From positions 383,420 to 447,419 of the forward strand of contig JAVHQC010000022.1 in the NCBI GenBank assembly GCA_036170915.1: a stretch of 64,000 nucleotides of DNA. Direction: 5' to 3'. A program made the translations under genes and the position numbers. Shown here one piece after another: positions 14,811-60,859 of this stretch. The notes under the pieces were generated by a model. It was not told the origin of the DNA. It made no database searches and saw only the letters and a list, made by a program, of their open reading frames with translations. Numbering within the stretch: position 1 is the first letter of the stretch; each line of letters starts with the position of its first letter. Source of the stretch: Cyanobacteria bacterium auto_48_18. Its GTDB lineage: Bacteria > Cyanobacteriota > Vampirovibrionia > Obscuribacterales > Obscuribacteraceae.

Positions 14811-16358
14811 ATGGAAATCAAACTCCAAAAACCGTCCATGTTTCAGGGATGTGCCCTCGCCTCGGGCACAAGTCTTGCCGGACTTGCAGCGCTTGTCCAT
14901 GCATTTGACGTTCAGGCGCCAGTTAGAAAACCTGCTTGTATTTCAGAGCAAAACATAAAAGGTCATATAAAGGAGATTCCTGGCTGGCAAATTTACAGCA
15001 AGCGATATGAGCTCGAACCCACCATTGAAGCCCATCTTAATTTTGCAATGCGATACGAAAGCCTGGATTTACTTGTTCTAAAGCGGATATTCTTGGCCCT
15101 GCCACCTCAAGCTGTAGAGAGCTATGTAAAGTCTGCTCCAACAAGCGTACTGACGCGTCGCGCTTGGTATTTGTATGAATTTCTGACGGGCAAGACGCTA
15201 AGTGTCACGGATGCGCCTAATGTCACCTCCGTTGACTTGCTTGATACAGACGAATACTTCACCAGATCTGGTGGCAAATTGTCACGCCGCCACAAGGTGC
15301 GTGACAATCTCTTAGGCACGGCTCGTTTTTGCCCAATAATCAGAAAGACTGATGTGCTGAGGTCTTACGTTGAAAGTGACCTTTCGAAAACCGCTCTGGC
15401 TGTGATTGGACGCGTGAGCAAAGCAATGGCAGGTAGAGCAGCTAGCTTTCTACTCTTAGCTGACAGTAAGGCAAGTTTTCAAATTGAAGGAGAACGGCCG
15501 CCGCGAAATCGAATCGAACGGTGGGGGCGAGCCGTAATGCAGGCAGGCAAAAACCCTTTAACTTTAGACGAACTGATTAGGCTTCACGGAATTCTTCTTG
15601 AGGACAACCGTTTTGTCATGGGCGGATTGCGTACCGAAGGCGTTTTTCTCGGCGAACATAGTCATGACGGTGAGCCGCTTCCTGAGTTCATCGGAGCCAA
15701 GTCAGAGGATCTTGTTGATTTGATGAACTCTTTAATTGAGACCAATGCAAGCATGAAGCAGGGTGGTTTGGATCCTGTCCTCCAAGCCGCGGTGACTGCC
15801 TTTGGATTTGTCTTCGTTCATCCCTTCGCTGACGGTAACGGAAGACTCCACCGATGTTTAATTCATCACACTCTCGCCGACCGACAGTTCACACCGCCTG
15901 AAATGTTGTTCCCTGTGTCATCAGTAATGCTTGATTGGATAGACAAATATCGCAAAACACTTCAAGAGCATTCTGCTCGTCTTATGAATTTCATTGAATG
16001 GAGTTCGACTGCAAAAGGCAACGTCGAAATTCTGAACGACACCGCTGATTTATATAGATTTTTCGATTGTACTCAAGCCGCAGAGTTCCTATACAGCTGC
16101 GTTCAGCGAACTATCGAGTCTGATCTTCCTCGAGAAATTGACTATTTAACGCGCAGGGACGAAGCAGTTAGGAATATTATGGATCTCGTTGAGATGCCGG
16201 ATCTTATGGCAGACCAGTTTGCAATTTTCGTGCACAGGAATCATGGCAAACTTCCTAGCAATCGACGGCAAAAAGAATTCGCAGCGTTAAAGGAAGAAGA
16301 GCTGTTGGAATTAGAAGAAATTGTTCGAACTGCTTTTGATGGTTTTAGCATCAGCTGA
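14811..16358 (+). CDS. Fic/DOC family protein with long N-terminal extension
   Basis: Canonical Fic motif HPFADGNGRLHR; SKASFQIEGE helix may be the autoinhibitory motif. Confidence 0.9.
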   Translation: MEIKLQKPSMFQGCALASGTSLAGLAALVHAFDVQAPVRKPACISEQNIKGHIKEIPGWQIYSKRYELEPTIEAHLNFAMRYESLDLLVLKRIFLALPPQAVESYVKSAPTSVLTRRAWYLYEFLTGKTLSVTDAPNVTSVDLLDTDEYFTRSGGKLSRRHKVRDNLLGTARFCPIIRKTDVLRSYVESDLSKTALAVIGRVSKAMAGRAASFLLLADSKASFQIEGERPPRNRIERWGRAVMQAGKNPLTLDELIRLHGILLEDNRFVMGGLRTEGVFLGEHSHDGEPLPEFIGAKSEDLVDLMNSLIETNASMKQGGLDPVLQAAVTAFGFVFVHPFADGNGRLHRCLIHHTLADRQFTPPEMLFPVSSVMLDWIDKYRKTLQEHSARLMNFIEWSSTAKGNVEILNDTADLYRFFDCTQAAEFLYSCVQRTIESDLPREIDYLTRRDEAVRNIMDLVEMPDLMADQFAIFVHRNHGKLPSNRRQKEFAALKEEELLELEEIVRTAFDGFSIS

Positions 16359-17444
16359 CTGTTGCCAACAGTCAAAGGCCAACCGGGCAAAGGCAGCAAT
16401 GGCTTTTTCGCGCTCCGCCAATGGCTTGGTGGAATTTTTGACGAAAACAGCGATGCATAAATGCCCTTTATGGTTGGGCAAAGTAATGATGCCAGCATCA
16501 TTGGTGGCGGCATTGATACCGTCTGTAGTGTCCCATGTACCGGTTTTGTGAGCGACGATGGTACCCGCCGGTAAATCGCCTTTGAGTCTGCCCGGACCTG
16601 TTGCCGTCTTCTCCATGATTGCTAGTAAATACTTTGTAGTCTCCGGCTTTAAAAGTTTGCCTTTGTATAATTTTTCCAGCAGGTCGGTTATTGCCGCTGG
16701 TGTCATTGTATTTTCTGGGTCTTCCCTAAATTTCTCTGCGGCCTTGCTTTTTTCTGCTTTCGGTATGGCTGCTACGAGTTTGTCAATTCTGTCTTTGTTC
16801 CACCATTCGGTTATCTTTTCTTTGACACCGCTATAGTCGAGAATGAGCTGGCACTCTGTGTTTTTAACATGTATCGATGTGCAACCTGCCGCGTCCAAGA
16901 ACGCTTGGACAGCTTTTGGGCCGCCGGCTTTCTCTAATAGAATGGCATCGGCAGTGGTATCACTCTGGCAAATTGATTGTTCAAGCAAATCGTTGTAGCT
17001 GACGTCTAAACCTGCGGCTGGAAAATTTTTGATTAGTGGGCTGTGAGCGACGGGAAATATGTCTTTGGCTGAGAGATGAATTATGTCTTTCAGCTTGTAC
17101 TTTCCCTCGTCTACCAATTTAAGAAATGCAATTGCTTCGACTAATTTGACCACGCTCGCCGTGGGAAAGACATCATCGGCTTTGTACTGCATCGACTGGC
17201 CCGATTCTAAATGCACCACCGATGCGCCAAGAATGCCACCGCTCTGTCGCTCAATTTTTAGAAATGGCGTCTTGAGCTCTGCACCTTTTGATTGCACTGA
17301 GCCGGTTGAGTCTGATTTTGCAGAGGTGTAAGCAGTGGTAGTCAGAACTATAATTCCGGCGGTCACACTGACTGTTAAGGCTTTCGATAAAGAGATCATC
17401 AGTTGCGTTTTGCACTCTTGCTTTGTTGGGTCTTTCCACCGCAT
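16311..17444 (-). CDS. Class A serine beta-lactamase-like protein; start probably at about 17399
   Basis: FPTASVVK (SxxK), SDT in place of SDN, Glu in KNTE, VAHKTG, ATNDAGII; signal peptide. Confidence 0.88.
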   Translation of the reverse strand: MRWKDPTKQECKTQLMISLSKALTVSVTAGIIVLTTTAYTSAKSDSTGSVQSKGAELKTPFLKIERQSGGILGASVVHLESGQSMQYKADDVFPTASVVKLVEAIAFLKLVDEGKYKLKDIIHLSAKDIFPVAHSPLIKNFPAAGLDVSYNDLLEQSICQSDTTADAILLEKAGGPKAVQAFLDAAGCTSIHVKNTECQLILDYSGVKEKITEWWNKDRIDKLVAAIPKAEKSKAAEKFREDPENTMTPAAITDLLEKLYKGKLLKPETTKYLLAIMEKTATGPGRLKGDLPAGTIVAHKTGTWDTTDGINAATNDAGIITLPNHKGHLCIAVFVKNSTKPLAEREKAIAAFARLAFDCWQQSADAKTIKSSSNNFF

Positions 17445-57117: not shown

Positions 57118-57600
57118 TTGAATCAAACGGGTGGGGATCTAGATAGAAGGTCAATGATTGATTTCGAAGAATTGATTGCCGAACGGGGTTCGTCAAACTG
57201 GCAAAAGGAAAGTCCTGGTTCGCCTTCGTCCATTCAACTTCTCCAACAGGAATGTCCGTTTCCACTCCCGGCGGAATATGTCGAGTTCCTGCTATATAGT
57301 GATGGAGCCTATGCCGAGCTACCCGTTGACCCGCTCTGGTGTGTTCTTTTTCCTGCGAACAAAGTTATGAGTACAAATATTTTGTGGGGAACTTTTGATG
57401 ACCTACCTGGCTATTTGGTCATTGGAACAAATGGAGGCGGATGCGCTCTATTATTTAAAGTGTCAGAAGGCTCTTGGCCCGTTTATTGGACTGATGAAAT
57501 CTATTTTGGGCTAGAACCAGAACTCGTAGCAAACAGTTTCATTGAATTTGTTTGTATGTTAGGAAGGTCTGAGGACTCGGTAGTAAATGCTGCTGAATAG
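57118..57600 (+). CDS. SMI1/KNR4 (SUKH) family protein
   Basis: PLPAEYVEFLLYSDG, LVIGTNGGG, VYW, VANSFIEF; ATG alternative at 57154. Confidence 0.85.
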   Translation: MNQTGGDLDRRSMIDFEELIAERGSSNWQKESPGSPSSIQLLQQECPFPLPAEYVEFLLYSDGAYAELPVDPLWCVLFPANKVMSTNILWGTFDDLPGYLVIGTNGGGCALLFKVSEGSWPVYWTDEIYFGLEPELVANSFIEFVCMLGRSEDSVVNAAE

Positions 57601-57640
57601 CGGTTTCAACTGTTATGTGCCTGATGCAGCTCTCTACGAT

Positions 57641-59002
57641 TTAAACAGCTGGTCCAACGCCCGCTAGTTTTTTCTCGGCCAATTTTTTCGCAGCCGGAGT
57701 TTTCAAATAACTAGCAGCGCTGTTGCGCAAAATCGTTGCCGTTGCGTGTTTAGAACCGAGCCAGAGAGCCCTTGAGGCATCGTTGTACGATTGTTGATAA
57801 AGCCCAAGCTTTAGCGCTGCCAGGCTGCGCATTTCGTAGCCGCCAGGTTTAGTAAATTGTTGTTTGATATATTTGTCGGCACAGGCAAAGGCCTCTTGCC
57901 ACCGCTGTTGTTTTGCCAGCTGCACAAATTGGTCAGGCGCGCTGGTGGCAACTTTAGCACCAGAGTTATTTTTTGACTTGTCTAAAACTATGGCTGAAGC
58001 GACAACAGCCGTTGGTTTCGTCAACGTGCGTAAACTCTTACCTTTAATTGCCAGAGCTGTAGAAGGCCTTGTGCCCTCTGCGATTTCCATTTCGTTTTCG
58101 CCTTTATCGTAATGAGAGCAACCATAGCTGGTGTAAGCAGCTGTGTCGAAATTGCTGTAGTCGGCAAAAATAAAAGCTTTGCTGGCCATGCGCTCATGCA
58201 TGATTTTGTCAGTTGTTTTAAAAGCTGCGTAGGGCAAATCATGGTGCGGATCTTCCACCGCCTTAATTGCTTCTTTATCGCTGATGCAATCGGCCAGATC
58301 TTTTCTATTCTTATAAATGTGCTGAGCATCAAAGCCTTGTAAGTGGCTGCGGGCAACGGTTTCTTGTGAGTGCGTGGCCAGATGTTCCAGGTGCAAACGC
58401 TTAAATAATTCAGCTTTGTGCGCAGGCGTGATCGCCTTATCTTCCCAAATATAATTGAGCTTTTCGGCTAGTGCCAGTTCGCAAGATAGGTCGGCAGAGT
58501 TCCAGAACCCGGGCAGGCAATGAAGAACGGTGCCATCGGCGGTCATGACAAAAGTTTGCAAATTATGCGGGCCGGCACCATTGGTGGTGTTAACCGCTGT
58601 GCCGTCGATAGGGTGCACCCCTGAATCTCCGGCATAACCTTCTTGCATAATGTTTTTATAGCCGCAAACGAAACGATTGCGCAATGTTGTAAAAGTGGGT
58701 TCTTGTGAAAGCGACACGGCTCTCAAGCTATTGCCGGCACTTCACGTAAAGCCGTCGATGTTGCCGAGCATGTGAATCCATACGATCAGCTTATGTTCTT
58801 TTTTTGCCTGTTCTTTGGCTGCATCTAGTGACGTCAGCCAGTTGATTTTTGAGCAGACAAGTTTTGATTGCGTCTGCGCTACACTGCCGGGCAAAACCGC
58901 AGGCAGCGCCGCCAGATTCTCAGCGGCAACAACCGGCGCTGTAATTTGCCAGGCGACTAAACCCAGACTGAGTGACAATGACGCTATCTTGTTGGTCAGC
59001 AT
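57641..59002 (-). CDS. Probable secreted selenoprotein (SelN-like thioredoxin fold plus C-terminal TPR-like region), 453 aa, in-frame UGA at 58742-58744
   Basis: Two track ORFs share a frame separated by one TGA: WLTSLDAAKEQAKKEHKLIVWIHMLGNIDGFT-U-SAGNSLRAVSLSQEPTFTTLRNRFV; hairpin directly 3' of the UGA. Confidence 0.75.
58706..58744 (-). promoter_or_regulatory. Candidate bacterial SECIS element
   Basis: UGAAGUG pairs with CGCUUUCA; upper stem CGGC/GCCG, or GCU-[UGAG]-AGC with the loop starting 16 nt after the UGA and G at loop position 2. Confidence 0.5.
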
Positions 59003-59041
59003 GACCTTAGTATAAGGCCAATCGCCAGATAGTCTATGTTG

Positions 59042-60859
59042 CTAGAAACCATTTTGTGGAGCCAACACGGGCGCCGGCACATTAATGTCTGGGCGCGCAG
59101 TCAATCGCAGCAGTTCAGGATTTTGAATATACGGATGCGGTGCAACCGGTTTGAAGTATTGTTGCAAGGCCTCGACTGAGATTCCGGCAGCGCGAGCGGC
59201 TTCTAGTTTTTCACCGGCAATCAAATTGGCTTTGGCAAACTGTTCGATGCCAGCGCGGTATCCCGAAAGTATGGCTTCATCTTTCTGATTGGCGTTCAAC
59301 AAAAATTTGAGAGAGTGAAAACTGTTGACCTCAGGGCGAATGACGATACCGGCGCTTTCGGCCAGACCGTTCTGACCTTTCTCAAAATTTCCGCTCAAAT
59401 ATTTGGCAAATAAATAGAGGCCCTTGTTCACGTATGACATAGCGCCTACAGGCAAACTGGCAATAACGTTGTCTGTGTGCACACCAAAGTGGGTGCTGAC
59501 CATCTGTGTGGGGCATTTGCCGAAGCGACCAAGGGCACCGTCAAACAAGCGCCGCCCGAGATATGTGACCGATTCGAGCAGAGCGGGAATGGCACAGGTG
59601 GCACGTATGGCGTCGCCTACCTGAGCTGGCTGGTTGGAAATTAAATGGCGATTGTGGCCCCTGGTGTATTCGACAACACCGTTTTTGGTGAACATCACTT
59701 CGCTTTCGCGGCCAACGGCCATGGTCCAGAATTTTGCGGGCCATTCTTTGACGTGCAACTCGGTCAATTCGCCAAGTTTGCTCGACCCATAAATGCCGTC
59801 TTGCAGTAAGTCGATTTTTTTGTTCTCGCGTAGCAGTGGCGTGAGCAATTTCTTTTTGTCGATCAGACCAGAGAAGTCTGTCATCTTGGCCAGTTCGATC
59901 ATTTTGTAGGAAGGTAATTCAGCGGCAGCCATAACCGCAGGTATAGCCCCGCCACTGACACCACCAATGGTGTCAAGTTTAATTTCGGCGGCGCGGCAGG
60001 CTAAAATTACACCAGTGCTGGTCAGGCCCGCTTTTGAGCCGCCACTGCCGCAGACCAGGTGCCATCCTCGTTCTGTAGATTGTCCAGCTGTGGCTACAGC
60101 CTGTCTGTCTTTGATAATAGCGCTGGTGAGCGATGCATGGTCAGCTGAGCGCGAACGCTCACCCAGGGTGGAAAAGCCTTTGCTGAATGCCATTCCCACG
60201 CCGTGAAAAGCTGCATTGGTGAGGCCGAATCCGGCAGCGGCCATGGCCGTGCGCTCCAGGCTGGCGGCCTCTCCTGTTTTAATCAGTGAGTTGGCTTGCT
60301 CTGTCACCACTCCACCTAAGATGCCTGAGGTGAGCGCGGCGCTGATGCCTTTTTCTGAAGCGATCAGACCAGTTTTGGTCAGCAGCTTGGGGCCGTATTC
60401 GAAAGCGGCTATGGCGCTTGCGCCAGTAACTGCATGGGCAAGTCTGTCTTTGTTGTCTTGGCCCTGTTTCAGTGGTTCTACGGCTCCTATTAAGCCACCG
60501 GCGGCCACTGGGGCAAAACTGCTCACTCCAGGAGCCCGCTTAATCAGTGCTGTGGCGGCGATGAAGACTGTGGCACTGCCCACCAATTCGCCGGCGATGT
60601 AGGCCTTTGATTGCGCTTGTTTGGCTTGTTCGGCCATTTCTTGCGGCGAGTCGGTTTTTCCGGTGATGAGCTGGCTTGTGCCTTTGAAGGGAGCCACTAG
60701 CTTGTGTGCCACGCCCGAGCCAAAGTTAGAAAGCACACCGGCTTCGGTGTCACTGTCATTGGAGTTTTGTCTATTCTCAGGTGCGGGGCGGTCGATGGGC
60801 ATTTTTTGAGCGGAAATAATGGGGGACATTCCCATAGTAGTTAAATATTGACAAGTCAC
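59042..60859 (-). CDS. Patatin-like phospholipase with Gly/Ala-rich hydrophobic N-terminal region
   Basis: GSGGSKAG oxyanion loop, GVSGG nucleophile, AIRATCAIP, FDGA; no classical signal peptide. Confidence 0.85.
   Translation of the reverse strand: MTCQYLTTMGMSPIISAQKMPIDRPAPENRQNSNDSDTEAGVLSNFGSGVAHKLVAPFKGTSQLITGKTDSPQEMAEQAKQAQSKAYIAGELVGSATVFIAATALIKRAPGVSSFAPVAAGGLIGAVEPLKQGQDNKDRLAHAVTGASAIAAFEYGPKLLTKTGLIASEKGISAALTSGILGGVVTEQANSLIKTGEAASLERTAMAAAGFGLTNAAFHGVGMAFSKGFSTLGERSRSADHASLTSAIIKDRQAVATAGQSTERGWHLVCGSGGSKAGLTSTGVILACRAAEIKLDTIGGVSGGAIPAVMAAAELPSYKMIELAKMTDFSGLIDKKKLLTPLLRENKKIDLLQDGIYGSSKLGELTELHVKEWPAKFWTMAVGRESEVMFTKNGVVEYTRGHNRHLISNQPAQVGDAIRATCAIPALLESVTYLGRRLFDGALGRFGKCPTQMVSTHFGVHTDNVIASLPVGAMSYVNKGLYLFAKYLSGNFEKGQNGLAESAGIVIRPEVNSFHSLKFLLNANQKDEAILSGYRAGIEQFAKANLIAGEKLEAARAAGISVEALQQYFKPVAPHPYIQNPELLRLTARPDINVPAPVLAPQNGF

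Follow-up and report, generated by a model that had tools for sequence, protein, structure and literature searches.

A candidate exported thioredoxin-fold selenoprotein family, split in databases by an in-frame TGA, in Obscuribacterales

Results

The interrupted gene

We analysed a 64,000-nucleotide stretch of DNA (the window) from contig JAVHQC010000022.1 of Cyanobacteria bacterium auto_48_18, a member of the Obscuribacterales, for a minus-strand gene that appears to encode a selenocysteine (Sec) protein. Translation of 57641-59002 gave 453 residues and one internal stop, a TGA at codon 87 (58742-58744; context ...GNIDGFT-stop-SAGNSLRAVSLS). Five sense codons follow the TGA and lead to a TTG (58724-58726) that starts a 361-aa open reading frame (ORF); this ORF and the 86-aa ORF upstream are both present in the ORF list of the window. 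A preliminary description had reported these same-frame ORFs, with one TGA and five sense codons between them, and had proposed a read-through selenoprotein; the arrangement was confirmed and all of its coordinates were right. No Shine-Dalgarno-like run was found in the 30 bases 5' of the TTG, again as described, and the TTG overlaps the 5' arm of a predicted hairpin. The N-terminus has the basic start and hydrophobic stretch (top 12-residue Kyte-Doolittle mean of 2.06) of the probable signal peptide noted previously, and in all 145 non-redundant loci whose upstream part is complete a hydrophobic stretch lies ahead of the core, by a permissive threshold with no control. The features of the gene are as follows.

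57641-59002, minus strand: whole gene, 453 aa, with UGA predicted to be read as Sec87 (translation; TGA conserved among relatives)
58742-58744, minus strand: predicted Sec codon (in-frame TGA) where the active-site helix begins, in T-U-S-A-G (conserved TGA; Cys homologs; AGR2 alignment)
58706-58725, minus strand: hairpin resembling a selenocysteine insertion sequence (SECIS), +20 to +39 from the U of UGA
58922-59002, minus strand: probable signal peptide of the cleavable type (residues 1 to about 27; cleavage placed by eye)
58442-58864, minus strand: thioredoxin-like core of the DsbH/Thioredoxin_7/AGR type, residues about 47-187 (predicted model; structure comparison)
58100-58441, minus strand: family-specific helical subdomain, residues about 188-301 (conservation and model; barely covered by the fold search)
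57701-57940, minus strand: tetratricopeptide repeat (TPR) tail, residues about 355-434, only in the window paralog group (weak Pfam match, model, Foldseek)

Conservation of the in-frame TGA

Two further copies of the gene were observed in the window genome (44-47% identity), each with TGA at the same column. The family occurs in 26 of 41 related genomes, with one to four strong copies per genome, and all 67 strong matches spanning residue 87 in the 41 genomes have TGA there. Reading the codon directly gave TGA in 31 of 31 spanning loci from the related-genome set (32 examined), in 79 of 79 spanning loci among the best 80 of 219 on named genome contigs, and in 80 of 80 loci taken from metagenome contigs (best 80 of 269). 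The three sets overlap and comprise 190 spanning loci, 158 of them non-redundant, with locus GC from about 33% to 74%. The column held TGA in all 190, never TAA or TAG; the search patterns used to collect the loci either lie 3' of the codon or would have given preference to Cys. The two halves were adjacent and in frame at every one of the 190 loci, and their occurrence as independent genes, a possibility raised in the preliminary description, was not seen. Protein conservation extends to both sides of the TGA, with synonymous variation upstream of it. Because the same column holds TGA in every spanning locus, the codon is not a product of chance or sequencing error.

The named relatives belong to the Obscuribacterales or Melainabacteria. 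Metagenome loci reach 74% GC and some split relatives are named Planctomycetota and Brocadiia, and therefore the family extends to other phyla; it was not found in viral contigs. One ortholog (L010) carries an extra in-frame TAG 194 codons past the TGA, a mutation or assembly error that would cut the helical subdomain and tail.

Databases hold the gene cut in two, as the preliminary description had anticipated of gene callers, with none of the best 120 of 398 matches spanning the codon. A profile search of 1.84 billion representatives returned 781 matches, and counts were made on the best 150. Among the matches listed, fifteen proteins span the codon, with Cys (nine), Trp (two), Ser (one) and Ala or Pro (three) at the column. 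Homologs with Cys or UGA at this column, with conservation on both sides of it, were found, as the preliminary description had expected.

A SECIS-like hairpin

The hairpin that had been expected just 3' of the UGA is present, with a 7-bp stem, a 6-nt loop (CGUGUC, 58713-58718) that lies 23 nt past the UGA, and a folding energy of -7.8 kcal/mol. The bacterial SECIS model (PMC13188914) gives a loop of 3-9 nt with a G at loop position 1 or 2, a UGA-to-loop distance of 16-37 nt, a stem of 4-16 bp and a minimum free energy of -7.5 kcal/mol or lower, and the window hairpin agrees with all four constraints. Taken alone it is not unusually stable relative to shuffles (z of -0.04 to +0.84, and -1.60 at best); the support for this predicted element is comparative and does not come from stability. 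Third-base entropy across the 158 loci is 0.00, 0.06 and 0.14 bits at codons +8, +9 and +10, against a mean of 1.62 bits (minimum 1.21) at 14 control codons, so that the synonymous positions are nearly frozen. Stem cells are paired at 98.8% in 28 distinct close sequences, where a single two-sided change gives weak covariation. When distant thioredoxin-like TGA genes were included (14 sequences), two-sided changes were observed in 4 of 6 pairs and 79.8% of cells were paired, a value matched by 0 of 500 shuffles; this covariation is suggestive only because the selection was hand-picked and the sequences are related.

Across the genome, a hairpin pattern derived from the window family itself occurs at this offset after 21 of 195,436 TGA triplets, and only at the three paralogs is such a TGA flanked by long open frames on both sides. 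A search of 57400-59400 against Rfam gave no match at E 1.

TGA as an ordinary stop and the Sec machinery of the genome

Elsewhere in this genome TGA is an ordinary stop. Among the 36 ORFs of the window that reach 250 codons, 5 end in TGA, as do 902 of 3,346 genome open frames of at least 200 codons (spurious frames included) and the paralog L005 itself. None of the 902 TGA-ended long frames is followed by the hairpin pattern, in line with the site-specific recoding proposed in the preliminary description. Release factor 2 (RF2) is present, and the in-frame TGA inside prfB is its ordinary frameshift site. Conserved Trp codons are TGG in 29 of 29 cases; tRNA-Trp has the anticodon CCA, and the sole UCA tRNA in the genome is tRNA-Sec, which scores 75.8 bits.

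SelB and SelD were found over their cut-offs, the latter of the Cys type and adjoining YedF, and a selenouridine synthase is also present. Of the four genes for which the preliminary description had proposed a search, selB, selC and selD were thereby located and selA was not (see Discussion); a Sec synthase of the eukaryote and archaea type was not found either. Among the 26 family-positive genomes, selA was observed in 24 and a high-scoring tRNA-Sec in 24, with at least one of the two in each, and selA passed its cut-off in 2 of the 15 family-negative genomes. Two genomes from another family of the class (G028, G034) have selA and no match to the window protein; the formate dehydrogenase alpha-like match in G034 is without TGA.

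Fold and domains

The predicted model shows a thioredoxin core in which the active-site helix begins at the redox residue, and structure matches place it in the DsbH/Thioredoxin_7/AGR branch, consistent with the thioredoxin-like fold proposed earlier. The Sec column aligns with the CxxS cysteine of AGR2 (E 0.03). Within the core, the loop before Sec is five residues longer, and an NGAGP-x-N loop is invariant. Position +3 after Sec is G in 120, A in 27, N in 6 and F in 5 of the 158 loci; it is never Cys, no resolving Cys is present and the family is not of the dithiol CxxC or UxxC type. The residue before Sec gives T-U in 147 of the 158 loci, including the window gene, and C-U (C-U-S) in 10, a sister subfamily. 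Both observations agree with the preliminary description, which had reported TU and not CU, with no adjacent resolving Cys. Many polar and aromatic residues of the helical subdomain are invariant or close to it.

A TPR-like tail had also been proposed, and three lines of evidence, each weak alone, point to it. Pfam TPR matches below the cut-off were obtained in 7 of 9 tails, the model shows helical hairpins after a low-confidence linker, and Foldseek matched the tail to the TPR domains of CHIP, RPAP3 and OM64 (rmsd of 1.1-1.9 over 75-82 columns, E about 0.01).

For the read-through protein no match was obtained in Pfam and NCBIfam release 20 at E 1. A sequence search of the PDB with the close alignment gave no match at E 10, and Foldseek gave none at E 0.001 with either model. 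The matches obtained were proteins of the DsbH/DUF255, Thioredoxin_7 and AGR2/3 types, and the Cys homologs scored weakly with the Thioredoxin_7, DUF255, VPGUxxT and Trx7/PDZ models.

Other Sec candidates in the genome and phylum

A de novo Sec scan of the window genome gave 77 candidates (best 70 of 77 listed) and recovered the three paralogs together with three more Sec candidates. One (C37 +25221; L232:2928-3506, plus strand) is an AhpD/CMD-like, CxxU peroxidase-related gene, a known selenoprotein type, which scored over the TIGR01926 cut-off and has TGA in 8 of 8 matches (7 of 25 genomes). The second (C36 +94430; L229:5035-5961, plus strand) encodes an exported thioredoxin-like protein with an in-frame TGA in the motif C-U-P-G-G-R; its hairpin loop lies at the offset seen in the window gene. 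TGA was observed in 6 of 6 matches (5 of 41 genomes), and no family was matched over its cut-off. The third (C5 +71483; L230:4214-5242, plus strand) is also exported and thioredoxin-like, with an in-frame TGA in W-U-P-G-K and a 7-bp hairpin. It has TGA in 8 of 9 matches and TAA in one short fragment, and by score it is not a VPGUxxT member. A relative of this gene (L242) has a different stem and an identical loop.

Four genes from other families of the same phylum (L143, L144, L145, L147) are UxxC thioredoxin-like TGA genes; in two of these, L144 and L147, a different stem carries the loop CGUGAC at the window family's offset. The phylum uses Sec beyond a single order. A short gene of the Thioredoxin_7 type, interrupted by a single in-frame TGA, was observed in all three sister-family genomes (G025:C91, G026:C46, G027:C291). 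The window genome has nine Thioredoxin_7 matches. No TGA was found in formate dehydrogenase alpha-like matches across 31 genomes, which suggests that Sec is kept in Obscuribacterales for envelope redox proteins and not for formate dehydrogenase. At C29 +302811, a HemC-like and a HemD-like frame (named by eye) lie in the same frame with nothing but a TGA between them; no obvious start comes directly after the TGA and no SECIS-like hairpin was found. They may be a broken fusion, a read-through or adjacent genes.

Comparison with known families

The window family resembles the VPGUxxT (NF041383, NF041382), Trx7/PDZ (NF041199) and TsoB (NF045694) families in its Thioredoxin_7/DsbH-type N-terminus, in Sec at the first position of the CxxC equivalent and in a SECIS inside the ORF, and its Cys homologs match NF041383 weakly (E 0.005-0.07). 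However, the window protein has no NCBIfam match at E 1, and its homologs score about 16 bits against cut-offs of 275-350. It differs further in T-U-S-A-G, the longer loop, the family-specific helical subdomain and the optional TPR tail. Relative to AGR2/AGR3, DUF255 (Thioredox_DsbH, PF03190) and Thioredoxin_7 (PF13899), it has Sec instead of Cys, a five-residue loop insertion, an insert of about 30 residues after the second strand and the helical subdomain, with 7-18% identity.

A distant family with Cys, found in oxygenic cyanobacteria, has members of about 410-470 aa that are annotated as hypothetical or thioredoxin family protein. It has the same N-terminal domain, the extended loop and a lone Cys in the Sec column, whereas its codon is that of Cys and its C-terminal region is another one. 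The two families align with a hhalign probability of 96.8 (E 2e-10), and the Cys family was observed in at least 14 phylum-sample genomes. The best 120 of 4,683 matches in a wider profile search were filled by it, and an ESM Atlas search with a Cys homolog (P0129) returned unnamed clusters, most commonly from Cyanobacteriota and Myxococcota. Fourteen loci (L129-L142), mostly from oxygenic cyanobacteria, contain open frames of 390-535 aa, a widespread type in which the Sec column holds one Cys; their hosts are culturable and therefore provide the easiest genetic handle on this domain.

We found no description of the window family in the literature, with most subscription papers outside the search. 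A 2026 table of 119 prokaryotic selenoprotein families (PMC13188914) has no SelN-like entry and none assignable to the window family. The main text of BSepDB (PMC13326102) mentions neither SELENON nor Cyanobacteria, although its supplement may list these organisms, or the family under another name. The accessible portions of PMC5029168, PMC6627142, PMC4807772 and PMC3316567 contain nothing on the family, and no paper with both Sec and Obscuribacterales as terms was found.

Discussion

The interval 57641-59002 is very probably one gene, encoding an exported thioredoxin-fold oxidoreductase with a single selenol at Sec87. Judged from comparative sequence data, UGA87 is almost certainly read as Sec, and the 453-aa read-through protein of the preliminary description is upheld by TGA at 190 of 190 loci, the Cys homologs, the constrained hairpin and the presence of selB, selC and selD. 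A thiol-redox function in the envelope, for which the fold and position argue, is likely. The family is a real selenoprotein family, uncatalogued as far as our searches reached, of a thioredoxin-like type that is already known; near-total use of Sec, paralog expansion and the host lineage make it distinctive.

In the proposed mechanism, SelB would bind the hairpin 3' of the UGA and deliver Sec-tRNA, and the ribosome would insert Sec87 and go on; without Sec insertion, RF2 would release an 86-aa stub. The signal peptide would send the protein to the periplasm, where the selenolate of the active-site helix could attack a substrate disulfide or an oxidised cysteine to form a mixed Se-S bond. Because Gly replaces the second Cys of CxxC, an outside thiol would have to resolve this bond, possibly that of another Thioredoxin_7-type protein of the genome or a small thiol, as for the CxxS monothiol AGR2. 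The helical subdomain and the NGAGP loop probably set substrate specificity, and the TPR tail of the window paralog may bind a protein client.

Two observations weigh against reading UGA87 as Sec. The preliminary description had listed homologs with Trp, Arg or Gly at the column as a sign of a simple nonsense mutation or sequencing error, and Trp does occur there in two database proteins, P0121 and P0130. One of them can be explained: P0121 shares 319 of 323 positions with L030, whose DNA has TGA at the column, and split 237-aa members occur in the cluster of P0121, so that its Trp is most likely the result of translation with genetic code table 4 (the DNA behind P0121 and P0130 themselves was not seen). 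The other observation is that selA was not found in the window genome, an 86%-complete assembly. It is present in 13 of 14 same-genus genomes, and positions 27-100 of contig C27 match the opening 74 bases of the selA locus in a close relative, so that the locus runs off the end of C27; the missing selA probably falls at a contig break.

We considered whether the protein is a specific bacterial relative of SELENON (SEPN1), closer to it by descent than other thioredoxin-like proteins are, and regard this as possible though not favoured. SELENON is described in the accessible text of PMC8584023 as a transmembrane protein of the endoplasmic reticulum with an EF-hand and the motif SCUG. Both are redox proteins of the secretory pathway with a single Sec, the window protein has Gly three residues after Sec, as in the SELENON motif given in the preliminary description, and its pre-Sec loop is longer than that of AGR2. 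C-U, as in SCUG, is found at 10 of the 158 loci, and the C-U gene at C36 +94430, whose motif is closer than that of the window gene to the SELENON motif of the preliminary description, can be aligned with the family (hhalign E 5e-4, probability 30). On the other side, T-U predominates and Ser, not Gly, follows U, so that the window protein reads F-T-U-S. Pfam finds no EF-hand at E 1 and none is evident in the models. The signal peptide looks cleavable in the window protein, and the SECIS lies inside the ORF. The matches listed also include no eukaryotic or SELENON-named protein, which is a weak point, since they cover the best matches only. The null SELENON searches (profiles, ESM Atlas and a motif scan of viral contigs, which gave none) show neither kinship nor its absence. 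Beyond a common thioredoxin-fold branch, and as compared by published description only, kinship with SELENON is plausible and unproven; the window protein may act like a monothiol thioredoxin-fold protein, as SELENON may.

A role of Sec as a ligand or small-molecule nucleophile, in metal or metalloid binding or deiodinase-like reduction and not for protein disulfides, seems unlikely to us. A missing resolving Cys would suit it, the dense invariant His, Asp, Gln, Ser and Tyr of the insert and helical subdomain suggest a defined pocket, and some bacterial Sec residues have metal-ligand roles (PMC13188914). However, the structures nearest in fold are disulfide proteins of the Dsb and thioredoxin types, neither Pfam nor NCBIfam gave a match to a deiodinase model, the TPR tail points to proteins as clients and no metal-resistance genes are among the neighbours.

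Reading of the UGA as Trp or Cys by another route, through a reassigned code or leaky suppression, is very improbable. The Trp of P0121 and P0130 would speak for it, but that of P0121 is most likely an artefact of table 4, and TGG at conserved Trp codons, RF2 and the tRNA complement all stand against it. That the TGA is a true stop, separating two genes or marking a pseudogene, is the least credible alternative: databases do annotate the downstream half as a separate protein and L010 has its extra TAG, yet the codon is never TAA or TAG, the halves remain in frame and adjacent, the break falls inside one domain at the catalytic position, uninterrupted Cys homologs exist and the hairpin is constrained.

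The Sec reading of the window gene adds a large, almost always Sec-encoded family that pipelines store as fragments lacking the signal peptide, and it corrects hundreds of entries. A full Sec system is shown here in Obscuribacterales, contrary to a 2022 review (PMC9312934) in whose accessible text Cyanobacteria are listed among the lineages apparently lacking Sec. The T-U, C-U, Cys and Ser variants on one scaffold form a natural series for the role of a neighbouring Cys versus a lone Sec. If the link to SELENON were true, small soluble bacterial versions would help the study of a poorly understood muscle-disease protein. A broader scenario, which we offer as speculative and somewhat doubtful as a whole, is that the Obscuribacterales, a non-photosynthetic sister group of oxygenic cyanobacteria, retain all of the Sec machinery chiefly to make an expanded set of exported thioredoxin proteins with an extended loop and a single selenol (5 of the 6 Sec candidates of the window genome). 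These proteins would share one SECIS position and represent the bacterial superfamily that gave rise to animal selenoprotein N. In this scenario Sec would be ancestral and replaced by Cys or Ser several times, with only the Cys relative kept by oxygenic cyanobacteria.

Neighbouring genes and minor observations

Neighbourhood comparison, from which one kinase neighbour was excluded because it had been read on the wrong strand, found no neighbour gene common to the whole family. The nearest gene upstream is the following.

59042-60859, minus strand: patatin-like gene, 39 nt upstream on the same strand (neighbour listing; Pfam)

This patatin-like phospholipase has a long low-complexity N-terminal half; it is adjacent in the closest orthologs only and is therefore not a family-wide partner. 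A gene for an SMI1/KNR4 (SUKH) protein flanks the other side at 57118-57600 (plus strand). A dataset look-up listed no RNA dataset carrying the stretch and one DNA run that contains it unchanged, which may be its own source. Two tRNA gene arrays of nine genes each were observed on contig C33, at 15652-16458 and 164122-165603.
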